Below, piece after piece: positions 19,472-33,826 of a DNA stretch of 64,000 bases. The notes below the pieces were generated by a model that searched no databases, was not told the DNA's origin, and was given only the letters and a program-made list of their open reading frames with translations. The first letter of the stretch is position 1; each line of letters begins with the position of its first letter. A program made the position numbers and the translations under genes. The stretch comes from Escherichia phage OliverMaurmann_Bas86. The stretch lies in sequence record PQ850622.1; one strand, written 5' to 3'.

Positions 19472-20036
19472 TAATCCACTCTAAATCATCAACTGCCTCT
19501 TCTACAGAACGGTCATTAAAGAGGAGGTAGGTTGGTAGGTTTGTTCCTTCAATATAAGAACGGGAGTCCCCTTCAAAGGAGCAGCCATCTCGGAGAATCT
19601 GAACTACTCGAACATAGAAGTGTTTCTCTAGTTCTTCAACTTCAGCTTTGAACCCACCATCAGAGAAGACGATAACATCATTCTGTGATGGGATACGTTG
19701 TTGAATACTGCTAACAGCAAGTTTACCCATGCAGGTCTCACCAAACATAGGTTTCAGATAATCCTCACTAGTTGCAATCATCAAGTCTCGAACTGACTTA
19801 CCGCCCCATTCAGGACGGATATGTTCTTTCCACTCACGGTCGTTGTACAGCTCCATGAACTTATAAAGAGGGAGACCTAATGCAGCAGCAGCCACCCGAT
19901 ACATAGGCTCCTTAAAAGCCTTTACATGCGGTCTAAACTCAGTGTTACCAGCGGTCTTCTCTAACCAAGCATTAGCGATTGTATCTTTACCACAACCCGG
20001 AGGTCCATTTAGAATTACTACTAATGGTTTACTCAT
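19440..20036 (-). CDS. P-loop nucleotide kinase (dNMP kinase-like)
   Basis: Walker A VVILNGPPGCGKDT; overall layout resembles T4 gene-1-type dNMP kinases. Confidence 0.5.
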   Translation of the reverse strand: MSKPLVVILNGPPGCGKDTIANAWLEKTAGNTEFRPHVKAFKEPMYRVAAAALGLPLYKFMELYNDREWKEHIRPEWGGKSVRDLMIATSEDYLKPMFGETCMGKLAVSSIQQRIPSQNDVIVFSDGGFKAEVEELEKHFYVRVVQILRDGCSFEGDSRSYIEGTNLPTYLLFNDRSVEEAVDDLEWIIEETRRDLYV

Positions 20037-20686
20037 TATTGAATCATCCCTTGAAGATCTTCTTTATCAAAGTGCTTCTCTACTACCGCTTCATACAGAT
20101 CACGATTCTCCGAATAACGGCGATAGAAGGTTCCGTGTGAAATTCCCAGCTCTTGTTGGATGTGATCATGAGGAATACCGAGGAAGAGCATTGAGAACAT
20201 ACTTGCCATCTTGCGGTTTTCCATAATATCACTTAGGTCTTGGAAGAAGAAAAAGATTCTAGATTCCAAGAATGGGTCTCCAGTAGAATCATGCTTATCC
20301 ATAGCAATCTCTAAAGGACTTTCCCATGAATTCATCTCGGGAGGTCTAAACATATCAGCCTCTGGAATAGAATAGATACGTCTGTCTCCAACTGTCTGAC
20401 GATTAGAACGAATCGACCAGATGATATTCTTCACACGATAAGTCATGTGTTCAATATCTTTTTCATCGGTAAGCAGTAGTTCTTCTTGCTTTGCAAATAC
20501 AAAACGCCAAGAGTTCAGTAACACTTCCTGAGCAACATCCTCTGCTTCGTGATAATCTTTAATGTCGTACATAAAATACTTATGCACAACTTTCCAATTC
20601 TCTCGATAGAATTCATCGAAGGTTGGGTAGTACTTAATAGGTATGCCATGAATACGATAGCGTGTGGGTGTTGTCTTTTTCTTCAT
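20036..20686 (-). CDS. phage-encoded sigma factor (ECF-like sigma-70 family)
   Basis: Region-2-like [13 protein letters not shown] and C-terminal region-4-like [18 protein letters not shown]. Confidence 0.6.
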
Positions 20687-20935: not shown

Positions 20936-21198
20936 TGTATTCCTCTCTCCTTTAGAGCTTTAAGCAAACCGTTGTGGTTAGCGGCACAGGTTGTATAATT
21001 GTCCTGATACCACTCGAGTGTTGTTGCAAGTGCTACTCCCTGTCCACTCTGAAGTAAAGGGAGGTCTACATCACATTCAGCTTTTAGGTTTGTTGGTAAG
21101 GGCATTAGCTGCCTGCTGTTGTCGCTCGTTGAACAAGCCATCAAACTAGAAGCGAGCAAAATCACCAAACAACTCTTTTGCTTTTTCTTTGTAAGCAT
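20932..21198 (-). CDS. lipoprotein (o-spanin-like candidate)
   Basis: From internal Met: MLTKKKQKSCLVILLASSLMAC with lipobox-like SLMAC, then Pro/Cys-containing mature part. Confidence 0.4.
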   Translation of the reverse strand: MLTKKKQKSCLVILLASSLMACSTSDNSRQLMPLPTNLKAECDVDLPLLQSGQGVALATTLEWYQDNYTTCAANHNGLLKALKERGIQ

Positions 21199-21496
21199 TT
21201 TCTGCACCTTCTTGAGTGCTATGATAACCAAGCCAAATTACTTTGTTTTGATATCCGATACGAGCACTCCATTTATTAATATCTGACCTGTATCCTACAC
21301 CTTTTATTCCAGTTAAAGAGTTCTTTTGAACTATTTTATTGGCATTGTTGAGGACAGGTGTTGCTTTTCTTAGATTGCTCCAAGAGTTATTAGACTTATC
21401 TAAATCTTTATGGTCTATTTGGAAATCGGGAATTTCTCCAGTTTTTATATACCAAGCAACTCGGTGAGCTTTGTATGTCTTTCTCTGAAAATTCAA
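21146..21496 (-). CDS. HNH homing endonuclease with AP2-type DNA-binding domain
   Basis: HRVAWYIKTGEIPDFQIDHKDLDKSNNSWSNLR (HNH) and GYRSDINKWSARIGYQNKVIWLGYHSTQEGAENAY (AP2-like). Confidence 0.6.
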   Translation of the reverse strand: MNFQRKTYKAHRVAWYIKTGEIPDFQIDHKDLDKSNNSWSNLRKATPVLNNANKIVQKNSLTGIKGVGYRSDINKWSARIGYQNKVIWLGYHSTQEGAENAYKEKAKELFGDFARF

Positions 21497-22027: not shown

Positions 22028-22768
22028 TTAGAATGGGCTATCATCTTCTTCAAAGGTTGATTGCGGCTCTTCGTTAATGGTAGGAATACTTGGAGTAGCA
22101 TCTTTCTGTTCAGTGTCAGAAGCTTTAGTAACTTCACGACCAGCCAGAGGGATATTCTTAGCATCGTTAGCTTGAGTCAAGAGGTTACGTTGGAATGGGA
22201 AGATTGCTTGATAAGCAGCTAAGTTAGCGTCAGTCTCAGCATACGGTTCGAAGAAGATCAACTCACTACGAGGAGCACCTACCGCGTCACGATATTTAGT
22301 CGGGATTGGAGTGATGCTTTTAATGGAGTTTTTCTTCTCACCAGCTTTATTGGTGTAAGAGTTAACCAGAATGTTAACAGGCTGACCTAACAGCATATCT
22401 TTAAACCAACCCAAATCACCTTTCAGTGCTTGAACACTTGGGTCGATCATTTTAATCAGATTTAGAATACCAGAGTTCTTAGCTCGTGGGTTTACATCAA
22501 AAGATTTAAACTGGCAAGCAGGACGAGGGTCCAGAGGTTTGCCTTCATTATCAGTCCCTGTTGCATCTACGCCAATCAGCTCAAAAGCTAAGTCCATACG
22601 GAAAGCTGGGTTCTTAGGAGTAACTGCTTTGGTTTTAGGGTCAATCCAAGGGTCACGATTGTGAACACCCAAACCTACAACACGAACAATACGTGCTTCG
22701 TACTCACCATCAGGGATTACATCGTAGTTGGATTTACGGGATACAGACAGTTCAGGGATCATAGACAT
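22028..22768 (-). CDS. single-stranded DNA-binding protein-like (acidic C-terminal tail)
   Basis: 246 aa ending ...STFEEDDSPF, resembling the acidic tail ending in Phe of SSBs; has its own promoter-like element. Confidence 0.45.
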   Translation of the reverse strand: MSMIPELSVSRKSNYDVIPDGEYEARIVRVVGLGVHNRDPWIDPKTKAVTPKNPAFRMDLAFELIGVDATGTDNEGKPLDPRPACQFKSFDVNPRAKNSGILNLIKMIDPSVQALKGDLGWFKDMLLGQPVNILVNSYTNKAGEKKNSIKSITPIPTKYRDAVGAPRSELIFFEPYAETDANLAAYQAIFPFQRNLLTQANDAKNIPLAGREVTKASDTEQKDATPSIPTINEEPQSTFEEDDSPF

Positions 22769-22827
22769 ATTAATATTTCCTTATATAGATTTAAGATTGT
22801 TGCTCTCTTTGAGCGGTTTGTATACTA

Positions 22828-22836
22828 TATACATTA
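22828..22836 (-). promoter_or_regulatory. candidate phage-specific promoter element TAATGTATA (reverse strand)
   Basis: - strand reads TAATGTATATAGTATAC about 60 nt upstream of ATG 22768. Confidence 0.45.
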
Positions 22837-22898
22837 CACTTATACAGATAAGGTTCTATTATACTATAACCTTTTTGGTAGTAGATAATGACAAGTAG

Positions 22899-22907
22899 TA
22901 ATGTATA
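22899..22907 (+). promoter_or_regulatory. candidate promoter element TAATGTATATA (forward strand, divergent from 22828)
   Basis: GTAGTAATGTATATATGG on + strand; no + strand ORF downstream. Confidence 0.35.
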
Positions 22908-23103
22908 TATGGTATAGCTAGTAAAGCTATTGCAGGCTTGTATATTGGGCAATCATTGTAACCCTTGCAAGTACCGAAGGGCAGGAGACACCTGCGAGAT
23001 AAAAATAGAGAATTAAGGAATCCTTGATTTAGGTTGTGGGGACTCCTAGGGACTTTGATTCTCTATTAAAATCAAAAGAAAACTTAACTTAAAACAATAA
23101 CTT

Positions 23104-23742
23104 CTACCATTCTAAAAGACCTTTAAAACTAGTTTGTTCTACTGTTCTCTGATAAGGTAAGTTAGATTCTGCTTGTTTGCTTAGCATCTCTTGTACTTTA
23201 TCAGTAATTGGATAATCTTTTTGTAATAAAGAAGCTACCCACTCTTTCCTACTTTCCAGCTCTTTTCTAATTTCTTGCAGAGACACAGCTCTGTAATCAA
23301 TTTGTTCCATAGAGGTACAAAAATATCTCCAATCTTTGATAGTAGAATTATGAGTATGAGCATAGATATTATACTTTCCTCTCATTTCATCAGAGTGAAT
23401 AGGGATATGAGTTACCCAAAATTCTTTGTATTTATAATCACCACTGATGTGTCTAAAGACTTTCATCATATCAGGTAGAAGTTCTAATCTATCATGGTTC
23501 CCTAAGACAAGATGTTTCTCTCCCTTTATTTCAGCGATAATATCAAGTGCATACTTCTCAAACACCCAGTCACCTGTAAAGAAAGTTTTATCACGTTTAG
23601 TAACATGATCAAACGCTGCTAAGATAGCTTTATCATGTTCTTCAATACTACTAAACTTCTTCCTAAAGTTACAGATATTACGATGGCCTAGGTGACCATC
23701 ACCTGCAAAATAAACTTCAGCCACTTTCGTATGTGTCCTCAT
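23104..23742 (-). CDS. metallophosphoesterase (calcineurin-like phosphatase)
   Basis: Motifs AGDGHLGH, FTGDWV, LGNHD, AHTHN. Confidence 0.65.
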   Translation of the reverse strand: MRTHTKVAEVYFAGDGHLGHRNICNFRKKFSSIEEHDKAILAAFDHVTKRDKTFFTGDWVFEKYALDIIAEIKGEKHLVLGNHDRLELLPDMMKVFRHISGDYKYKEFWVTHIPIHSDEMRGKYNIYAHTHNSTIKDWRYFCTSMEQIDYRAVSLQEIRKELESRKEWVASLLQKDYPITDKVQEMLSKQAESNLPYQRTVEQTSFKGLLEW

Positions 23743-23974: not shown

Positions 23975-24071
23975 GTTCTACGAAGTTTATCAATTGACCA
24001 TAATCCGTCGCATCAGTGACGAATTGAAACAAACCTTTACCTTCAGCTTTAATAATATACTCTTTAGACAT
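23868..24071 (-). CDS. hypothetical protein
   Basis: 67 aa ORF. Confidence 0.3.
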   Translation of the reverse strand: MSKEYIIKAEGKGLFQFVTDATDYGQLINFVELAKLKEEIDALYADEQSRLLQESLSGDYICDGCTI

Positions 24072-24295
24072 TATAAGATCTCCCTTTGTTTGCTGTTAAT
24101 GACTGTCATCGCTGTGACTGGATTGTTTGTTCCAAGATATTCTAGAACAGGGACACCCTTAGTCGGTTTATCAGCCTCTATGTAATTCTTAACCTTGCCA
24201 CCAAGAACCGCTAGAGAAGCCTGAGCTTCCGCTTCATCATAATGAATTCGGTCAACTGTTTTCTTTCCAATCTTATAAGTGTGAACGTAAATCAT
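24071..24295 (-). CDS. hypothetical protein
   Basis: Start taken at internal ATG 24295 preceded by AAGGA; ORF track gives 24071..24331. Confidence 0.3.
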   Translation of the reverse strand: MIYVHTYKIGKKTVDRIHYDEAEAQASLAVLGGKVKNYIEADKPTKGVPVLEYLGTNNPVTAMTVINSKQREIL

Positions 24296-25723: not shown

Positions 25724-27571
25724 TTAGTGAGTGTGATTCCAGTTTAACCCAATCTTACAATCAGATGCAAGAGGACATTCCATTTTGAGGTATTCACCTG
25801 CTTTACGAACACACTCTTCAGTGAGGGTACGAAGTTTGTTAACATCGTCACGATGTACAGTGAACTGGCCTTCATCATGCATGTCAATAACCTTCGCACA
25901 ACGAACACCATCACGCTCAATCCATTTATTAAGGAATAGCATTGCATACTTCATAACAATCGCCCCAGCGCTCTGTAAGAGAGTGTTTAAGGCTTTATGA
26001 ACCATAACCTTTCCAGTTGCATCTCTTCTCATTGTAATACGACGTCCATCCACACCGTAGATGTATCCACTTTGTGCTTTCTCTGTCATACGTTCAATAA
26101 GAATTGCAATACAAGGATTCTCTGCTAAGAATCTTGCCCTCATGACAGCCCCTTCATCAGAGCCACCACCTACGATGCTTCCTAACTTAGCGTCACCAGC
26201 TCCGTAGTTGAATGCATAGATAAACGTTTTAGCATTATCACGAGTAGGAAGGCCAGCAAGTTTTTGGTTATGTGAGTGAATATCTCCTTCTAAAAGAATA
26301 TCTCTGTACATAACAGCAGAAGCTAGACCGCGTTCAGCTTCTCGTTTCTTAGCTGGGTTGTTTTCCTGCTCTGCTTCAGCGAGCATCTCACGACATTCTT
26401 TGATAAGGTAATGAGCAAGCATCCTCAGCTCAAGACCAGAGCCATCGTAACCTAAGAAGATTTCACGACCAGCAGGTACATAAAATTTATAAGCACCTAT
26501 TGGTTTGTCTTTCTTGCCCGGTTTTCCCATTTCGTAGATAATGTTAGTACCCTTTCGTACGTAACACCCATCAGGGATATGGTTGGTAATGATGAAAGGA
26601 TGGTTATGACTATCGTCTGAGGAATAGTCAGATTGAAAAAGACTGCGGCACTCGTGACCAAACAAACCGCGAGAAGGAATATTAACAACAATGCGATGTT
26701 TAAAACGAAATGTCGGAGTAGCGCAGCTATTAGCTTCGGCGGACAACTTACCATCTTTACGTTCCTTGTCGATAAGCCCGCTAATCAAACCTAGCCTGTG
26801 AGCCGCTACAACGCGTCTCTTAAGCAAACTTCCTACACCCCCTAGCTCACCCCCAAGCCCCTCTTCAAGAGTCTCCTCAAGGTTTGTAGGGGCTGTAGGC
26901 CACTTGTTTGATGTAGCCAAAGCTTTTTTGATTTCATCAAAGGTTACAGGCTTCTTCCTATTAGGGTTGAGACCTAAACCGCTGACATAGGCTTTCATAT
27001 AATTGACAGTGTGATAACGGAAGTGCTTATCCAAAAACCTTCGGATATCAGCATCTATCATCTCTGCTGTCTGTTTCTCTTTAGCGTTACCTCGAATCCA
27101 AGCAGAATACCATGCAGAGTATGTACCATACTTCTTCATAGCTTTACGAATTTCAAAAGTATTCCAAGGTTTCTTAGAATAATTCCACTCTGGAGGTATA
27201 AAACCTTCATCCATCAAGGCTTCTTTGATACGTGCATCTTTTGATGGGTCAAAGTCTACATACTCAACGCAAGTAAACGCCCCACCGATATCTTCTCTTT
27301 TAAGACCAACCCTATCACAATAGAGTTGAGGCCACTTCTGCAAAGCACCGGACTTCTTAAAAGGTTTAGAATAAGTTGAACCATCCACCCGCATTTTGGG
27401 GAGGAGAGGAATCAGTTCTTTATCAATATTGACAATAATCTCTTTGAGAAGATGAACAAACCACCGAGCGTTTCTTCTGTTGAAGTTGACTCCATGCTTC
27501 GCCTGTTTTGAGATTATATCAGCGACTGTCATCTCCGTTATGAAAGGTAACTTATCAGGGTTATCCATCAC
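25724..27571 (-). CDS. DNA polymerase, family A, polymerase domain only
   Basis: Motif A YDGSGLELRMLAH, motif B RDNAKTFIYAFNYGAG, motif C VIDMHDEGQ; no exonuclease motifs in this ORF. Confidence 0.8.
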   Translation of the reverse strand: MMDNPDKLPFITEMTVADIISKQAKHGVNFNRRNARWFVHLLKEIIVNIDKELIPLLPKMRVDGSTYSKPFKKSGALQKWPQLYCDRVGLKREDIGGAFTCVEYVDFDPSKDARIKEALMDEGFIPPEWNYSKKPWNTFEIRKAMKKYGTYSAWYSAWIRGNAKEKQTAEMIDADIRRFLDKHFRYHTVNYMKAYVSGLGLNPNRKKPVTFDEIKKALATSNKWPTAPTNLEETLEEGLGGELGGVGSLLKRRVVAAHRLGLISGLIDKERKDGKLSAEANSCATPTFRFKHRIVVNIPSRGLFGHECRSLFQSDYSSDDSHNHPFIITNHIPDGCYVRKGTNIIYEMGKPGKKDKPIGAYKFYVPAGREIFLGYDGSGLELRMLAHYLIKECREMLAEAEQENNPAKKREAERGLASAVMYRDILLEGDIHSHNQKLAGLPTRDNAKTFIYAFNYGAGDAKLGSIVGGGSDEGAVMRARFLAENPCIAILIERMTEKAQSGYIYGVDGRRITMRRDATGKVMVHKALNTLLQSAGAIVMKYAMLFLNKWIERDGVRCAKVIDMHDEGQFTVHRDDVNKLRTLTEECVRKAGEYLKMECPLASDCKIGLNWNHTH

Positions 27572-33774: not shown

Positions 33775-33826
33775 ACAATATTCTTATACTGTATATACAT
33801 TTGAGAGTTATCATATCTACTACCAA

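Follow-up and report, generated by a model that had tools for sequence, protein, structure and literature searches.

The 335-nt intergenic gap at 22769-23103 of the Escherichia phage OliverMaurmann_Bas86 sequence (PQ850622.1) is predicted to harbor an unreported seventh promoter for the phage sigma factor gp36, of the P68 type, and this plus-strand promoter probably yields a conserved, gp36-driven non-coding RNA of ~155-160 nt. The stretch we analyzed (64,000 nt, hereafter the window) is, judged by its closest matches, from a phiEco32-like podophage of the Gordonclarkvirinae. phiEco32 serves as a model for the takeover of host RNA polymerase by a phage sigma factor (gp36) and its co-factor (gp79), and gp36 has so far been taken to use six promoters, each before a gene. 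A seventh would add a non-coding output to this circuit and would offer, in clean and testable form, an example of a small RNA that a lytic phage places under its own sigma factor. The motif, gp36, and the minus-strand promoter P40 were already known; to judge from the papers examined, the plus-strand promoter and the conserved non-coding RNA it would make have not been described before. The plus-strand copy is absent from the gp36 promoter tables of PMC8948821 and PMC4281155, and none of the papers searched joined phiEco32 with antisense transcription, small RNAs, or a replication origin.

Genome setting and two inverted gp36 promoter motifs

Approximately 98 Escherichia/Shigella podophages of the Gordonclarkvirinae matched the 2-kb region around the gap at 83-96% identity, the relatives belonging to Kuravirus and Suseptimavirus (e.g. 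phiEco32, SU10, ECBP2, Paul, NC-B, and Bas87). All genes near the gap lie on the minus strand, including the two that flank it, an SSB-like gene (22028-22768; phi32_40 homolog, without a Pfam match) and a gene for a 212-aa phosphoesterase (23104-23742; Metallophos domain match). The DNA polymerase gene (25724-27571) is a neighbor in the replication module. The window also encodes the cognate sigma factor, as gp36-dependent promoters require: a minus-strand ORF (20036-20686) matched PDB 9m7y chain F over residues 1-215 (E = 2.8e-117), and this chain, named 'RNA polymerase ECF sigma factor', is the phiEco32 gp36 of the cryo-EM structure (PMC12276001). Between gp36 and the SSB-like gene, a minus-strand ORF (21146-21496) has, by eye, the look of an HNH/AP2-type homing endonuclease, and its presence seems variable among relatives.

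According to the literature, promoters for E. coli RNA polymerase carrying phiEco32 gp36 have a single consensus element, tAATGTAtA, and transcription starts 6-8 nt downstream of it. Six gp36 promoters are known in each of six phages, late (P6, P13, and P26) or middle (P40, P58, and P68), each named for the gene that follows (PMC8948821 Table S3). Exact copies of the 11-mer TAATGTATATA occurred three times in the 64 kb, compared with 0.02 expected, and none of 100 dinucleotide-preserving shuffles reached three. One copy (12908, plus strand) stands in front of a late gene and corresponds to a P26-type late promoter; the other two are inverted in the gap, at 22826-22836 (minus strand) and 22899-22909 (plus strand), with 62 nt between the 11-mers. 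With one mismatch allowed, the 9-mer was not enriched in the window (27 found vs 19.4 expected), and the signal is thus confined to exact copies. A first-pass annotation had described two divergent promoter-like elements ~60 nt apart; the pair is real, but its identity as the known gp36 promoter consensus had been missed. Neither element was called as a sigma70 promoter by a promoter scan. A near-consensus sigma70-type site (TTAACA-18-TATAAT, 11/12) occurs at 24070-24099 (minus strand), within the middle-gene cluster.

The minus-strand copy, which the first-pass annotation had correctly pointed at the SSB-like gene, is by position and motif the published gp36-dependent middle promoter P40. It occupies the same place upstream of the phi32_40 homolog, carries the same TAATGTATA element, and would drive the SSB-like gene from a predicted start at ~22821. 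In SU10, P40 is located 'between CDS37 and CDS38' (SU10 Table S2), and P40 or its equivalents are present in six phages (PMC8948821). The P40 9-mer was invariant in 17 relatives. P40 has no P68-type -35 element: position -37 is occupied by T in the window and by A in phiEco32, and only -34A is retained. Within the P40 5' UTR (22790-22815, minus strand), all relatives keep CCGCTCAAAGAGAGCAACAATC unchanged, and a small GCUC/GAGC hairpin can arise from it close to where the transcript begins.

The predicted plus-strand promoter and its conservation

On the plus strand, a 13-nt -35-type element, TTGGTAGTAGATA (22875-22887), is followed after 11 nt by the -10-type element TAATGTATATA (22899-22909), and both the 13-mer and the spacing are identical to those of P68. 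P68 is used by the gp36 holoenzyme and activated by gp79, and its open promoter complex has been solved by cryo-EM with AATG numbered -14 to -11 (Xu et al. 2025, PMC12276001). The C-terminal domain of gp36 touches -37G and -34A of P68, and mutating these contacts abolishes activity (PMC12276001). The corresponding bases of the plus-strand copy (G22877 and A22880) lie in register with its -11G (22903), and the predicted +1 is A22914 (range 22913-22915). The plus-strand copy has the published consensus and every one of the contacts -37G/-34A/-14A..-11G, and its predicted +1 agrees with the start-site rule; by these determinants it is a better match than P40. This set of determinants, together with a promoter-like pattern of conservation, supports the earlier assignment of the element as a promoter, whose activity is predicted here on comparative evidence.

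Beyond the individual contacts, the identity to P68 is specific. The P68-type 13-nt -35 element was found at the same spacing in the P68 of SU10 (given as ttggtagtagata-N11-aaatgtatata in SU10 Table S2), and 14 P68 loci from metagenomes have it at this spacing too. For the exact 12-mer TTGGTAGTAGAT the window has just two occurrences, once in the plus-strand promoter and once at 33815-33826 (minus strand), in the window's own P68, and the same two sites account for both matches to GGTA-N19-AATGTAT (0.04 expected). P68 and the plus-strand promoter thus share the 13-nt TTGGTAGTAGATA, the 11-nt spacer length, the AATGTATATA core, -37G, -34A, and -14A..-11G. They differ in that P68 begins aAATG and drives gene 68 ~35 nt downstream, whereas the plus-strand promoter begins with the consensus TAATG and is directed against all genes, with no ORF to follow. 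This is also where it departs from P40, which drives a protein-coding operon, and from the published gp36 promoters in general, which precede a middle or late gene. The upstream region of P68 is palindromic (ACTACTA..TAGTAGT), unlike that of the plus-strand promoter. In the window, the P68 homolog (33794-33826, minus strand) reads GGTAGTAGAT-N13-AATGTATATA, with the gene start ~35 nt downstream and an upstream palindrome, tACTACTAgttggTAGTAGat, that has an operator-like look.

We aligned the gap across 25 distinct sequences from GenBank, IMG/VR, and metagenomes. Both -10 elements were invariant, the -35 element was invariant save in one lineage, and the spacers varied freely; the putative plus-strand promoter is kept in every Gordonclarkvirinae genome examined. 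In comparisons of the window with four phiEco32-type phages, identity was 80.7% in the SSB-like coding sequence and 60.5% in the spacer between the two promoters, rose to 92% in the plus-strand -35 element, fell to 41% between -35 and -10, and reached 100% in the -10 element. Conserved -35 and -10 islands around a freely changing spacer form the pattern of a working promoter. In three phages, an insertion of ~120 nt separates the two promoters, both of which are intact. The insertion (ES17-type loci L005, L016, and L046) contains a basic, ATG-started minus-strand ORF of 40-47 aa, annotated as ES17_37, and another GGTAGTAGG motif. When metagenomes were scanned for the promoter pattern, most of the matches were P68 loci, and just two additional homologs of the plus-strand promoter locus came to light. 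In the distant relatives 7-11, J3S, LAh_8, and Vp_R1, the gaps before the SSB-like gene measure 54-243 nt, and nhmmer found no match in the 3.6-kb loci searched; in 7-11, the gap before the SSB-like homolog holds its own P48 promoter motif.

Coding potential and predicted RNA structure downstream of the predicted start

As the first-pass annotation had stated, no plus-strand ORF follows the promoter, and no conserved ORF was found on either strand of the gap when relatives were compared. The short ORFs that some GenBank records annotate in the gap start with TTG or GTG, and frameshifts or truncations affect them in relatives, which led us to reject a small protein gene. Downstream of position 22975 begins a near-invariant 96-nt block (22976-23071, hereafter block c), in which stops in all frames and indels of 1-2 nt among relatives exclude a coding function. 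A tRNA or known RNA family was likewise rejected: ARAGORN found no match in the gap, and neither did Rfam 15 at its gathering thresholds, where the best sub-threshold match was 6A RNA (18.4 bits vs gathering 41.2, E = 1.1). The only tRNA in the window, which is also its only Rfam match, is a tRNA-Arg (anticodon TCT) at 52393-52470 (minus strand). A host-derived sequence or mimic was dismissed as well: neither 5,426 E. coli genomes nor the GTDB genomes contained a match.

Two observations support the small plus-strand RNA proposed earlier, with a start near 22914: the hairpin located at the predicted +1 covaries, and strongly conserved non-coding sequence extends to ~23071. The hairpin, H1 (ATAGCT-AGTAA-AGCTAT, 22914-22930), begins at the predicted +1 and was found in six haplotypes. 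Pair 2 changes from UA to GC and pair 5 from CG to UA or AU, the loop varies in length, and in the commonest (phiEco32) haplotype pair 4 changes from GC to G·U. Two of the five pairs therefore show compensatory changes, in addition to the one G·U change. All six haplotypes fold on the plus strand (-1.6 to -6.0 kcal/mol). On the minus strand, where the G·U turns into an A·C mismatch, the commonest haplotype does not fold (0.0 kcal/mol). The covariation score of the whole predicted plus-strand structure was 0.038, compared with 0.015 ± 0.003 in shuffles (none of 500 reached the observed value) and at most 0.007 with slid partners. This signal comes from H1 alone; the other 42 predicted pairs never vary and thus speak neither for nor against the structure.

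H1 is followed by a variable middle module (22931-22975 on the plus strand), which in alignments takes two unrelated forms: form A, present here as a cassette at 22937-22975, and form B, ~25 nt longer. In form A, the predicted loop that GCAA and UUGC enclose contains all of the substitutions. In form B (loci L003, L005, L015, L016, and L022), a CUCUCA...UGAGAG hairpin occurs together with a direct repeat, GACGAC. The two forms are incongruent with their flanks, as loci L014 and L015 have the same flanks and different forms and ECBP2 combines form B with flanks of the window type; this points to recombination within the predicted RNA gene.

Block c was 97.4% identical between the window and the four phiEco32-type phages. 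It is more conserved than the neighboring, essential-looking gene, an unusually strong constraint, and could serve as a family marker that phage engineers should leave intact. It includes a hairpin, GCAGG-AGACA-CCTGC (22981-22995), and a long hairpin (23004-23067) that is a candidate bidirectional terminator. On the plus strand, the long hairpin has a 15-bp stem (23004-23018 with 23053-23067) that encloses smaller stems; the minus-strand version has a stem of 10 bp and, after it, TTTATCTCGC, the U-tract context being ATTCTCTATT and then TTTATC. The plus-strand form is the more stable (-23 to -25 vs -17 to -18.6 kcal/mol), and an A-to-G change in the long stem yields G·U on the plus strand. Both arms of the 15-bp stem are almost wholly invariant, which is uncommon for an RNA element that is purely structural; a constraint at the DNA level or on both strands may be the cause.

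Conservation stops a few nt beyond the long hairpin, which is likely, on the predicted folds, to form the 3' boundary of the ~155-160-nt RNA. Its plus-strand tail is only UAUU(U/A)AAA, and with so poor a U-tract, termination on this strand is doubtful. Scans found no conserved canonical plus-strand terminator at the gap, and phiEco32 has none within 1.1 kb downstream; the only canonical plus-strand terminator-like site nearby (23275-23296) is at chance level (1 found vs 1.0 expected). The minus-strand hairpin has an AU-rich stem ending in UAUU, a 43-nt interior, and then UUUAUC, and it was not called by a simple terminator scan. In the window it lies 33 nt past the stop codon of the phosphoesterase gene; in phiEco32-type phages, it lies 15 nt past that of gene 41 (phi32_41). 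The TTTATC tail together with this nearness to a stop codon makes it a plausible terminator of the upstream middle operon.

Shuffled sequences folded less well than either strand, in both forms of the middle module (z = -2.6 and -2.7 on the plus strand, -3.0 and -3.4 on the minus strand), and the case for a plus-strand RNA consequently rests on other grounds, namely how the promoter is oriented, where H1 sits together with its G·U, the G·U in the long stem, and the more stable plus-strand form of the long hairpin. It is conceivable, though unlikely, that the functional elements are instead those of the minus strand, with block c acting as the terminator and 3' UTR of the upstream middle operon and the plus-strand motif as a silent or incidental gp36 site that, for example, raises the local holoenzyme concentration for P40. 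The slightly better minus-strand z-scores and the good U-tract at 33 or 15 nt from a stop codon would be consistent with such an arrangement. It leaves unexplained, however, why a P68-type -35 element is invariant at the exact spacing and why H1 sits at the predicted +1 with a G·U that pairs on the plus strand only. The terminator would moreover be an AU-rich element of 64 nt that is 97% invariant, although this phage group has ordinary GC-rich terminators elsewhere, and in some phages the ~120-nt insertion parts the plus-strand element from P40 with neither being lost.

Candidate roles of the predicted RNA and the convergent operon

We favor a model in which gp36 redirects E. coli RNA polymerase to tAATGTAtA promoters, two of which would stand back to back between the SSB-like gene and the upstream middle genes. 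The plus-strand promoter would fire in the middle and late phases from ~A22914, against all neighboring genes, and its RNA would consist of the small stem-loop H1, the exchangeable middle module, and the conserved block with the long hairpin as its 3' boundary. On the minus strand, the long hairpin and its U-tract would probably stop the upstream operon, such that the convergent transcripts would share one terminator. The one infection RNA-seq data set found had been mapped to the host genome only. To our knowledge, neither a replication origin nor post-transcriptional control has been described for the phiEco32-like group, and an RNA that primes replication or controls the convergent operon would fill this gap.

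Our best guess, drawn by analogy, is that the RNA may act in cis as an OOP-like antisense RNA or insulator, pairing either with read-through transcripts of the upstream operon or with its 3' end, at the terminator the two would share; a role in trans is about as plausible. The OOP RNA of lambda is a short non-coding RNA that is transcribed from its own promoter against the operon flow beside the replication genes. Like OOP, the predicted RNA has its own promoter, is non-coding, and converges on the 3' end of the upstream gene. Unlike OOP, which is sigma70-dependent and overlaps the coding end of cII, it has a phage-sigma promoter and a conserved part limited to the 3' UTR and terminator; the two have no sequence similarity. 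As for targets in trans, the duplex energy against 201 translation-start regions, calculated with a crude method, was no better than for shuffled RNA (-46.8 vs a mean of -43.8 ± 2.7). No second copy of the RNA was found in the window, BLAST-short returning chance 9-12-mers only.

The idea of a transcript dedicated to antisense control of the phosphoesterase gene is not supported. Conservation ends ~33 nt before this gene, and most relatives carry other genes at this place, so antisense to the phosphoesterase cannot be the conserved function; read-through antisense to its 3' end is possible. Whereas the window runs from block c into the phosphoesterase, most relatives carry phi32_41, phi32_42, and a different phosphatase allele. 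A mosaic junction directly follows block c (23068-23103; loci L001, L002, L044, 709-816). Bas87, ECBP2, Paul, and XT32 resemble the window in passing from block c straight into the 212-aa phosphoesterase, and the phosphatase of phiEco32-type phages has 167 aa.

Promoter-dependent replication origins occur in phages and plasmids, among them the primary origin of T7 (phi1.1A/B), ori(uvsY) and ori(34) of T4, and RNA II of ColE1. By analogy, the orphan gp36 promoter could open or prime the DNA at a transcription-activated origin, with the RNA as a persistent hybrid or primer, although we consider this quite unlikely. As in those systems, a phage-specific promoter without a coding target lies within the replication module, with AT-rich sequence downstream: G clusters on the non-template strand (GGGGAC and GGGAC) are followed by a stretch of ~20% G+C (23068-23103), and the extreme conservation of block c would suit a structure- or hybrid-dependent primer. 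The AT-rich stretch is not conserved, however, and corresponds to an annotated small gene in phiEco32-type phages. GC and AT skew track gene orientation only, without an inflection at 22.9 kb, and thus lend no support; no repeated protein-binding sites (iterons) were found; and leading-strand synthesis would meet ~38 kb of minus-strand genes head-on. If such an origin did exist, the start of replication would be coupled to the gp36/gp79 transcription switch, and only in that case would a new principle be involved.

The mosaic junctions on both sides of the block, with alternative genes after 23071 and the form A/B cassettes before 22976, are reminiscent of the PeSL cassettes of T4-type phages, which have been proposed as homologous crossover points between mosaic modules. 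A promoter-terminator cassette conserved chiefly as such a recombination linker, with the RNA being secondary, would also account for the incongruent combinations of forms and flanks (L014/L015 and ECBP2). We regard this as improbable as the main explanation: it would account for homogenization at a crossover point while leaving unexplained both the compensatory changes in H1 and the promoter-like islands, and it can hold alongside a functional promoter and RNA without competing with them.

In the par locus of pAD1, RNA II shares a terminator with the Fst toxin mRNA. The phiEco32-type relatives have a comparable geometry, in which the plus-strand RNA would converge on phi32_41, a gene for a 35-aa hydrophobic peptide (MVTYILYFLAFLGIIFLSILIEFGLSKLVNYLGSK, a single hydrophobic helix) whose stop codon is 15 nt from the shared hairpin, the candidate bidirectional terminator; a type I antitoxin-like RNA is nonetheless very improbable, as no complementary direct repeats were found at the 5' ends and gene 41 is absent from Bas87, ECBP2, Paul, XT32, and the window, where the RNA module is fully conserved, so that the antitoxin reading does not apply here.

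Returning to the predicted gp36-driven RNA, we observed a direct repeat within block c, GGGACT-CCTA-GGGACT (23039-23054), that changes jointly to AGGACT-CCT-AGGACT in Bas87, TH34, XT32, Paul, and ECBP2. Form B of the middle module brings a third GGGACT. The predicted pairing leaves the repeat unexplained, and it may be a protein-binding motif.
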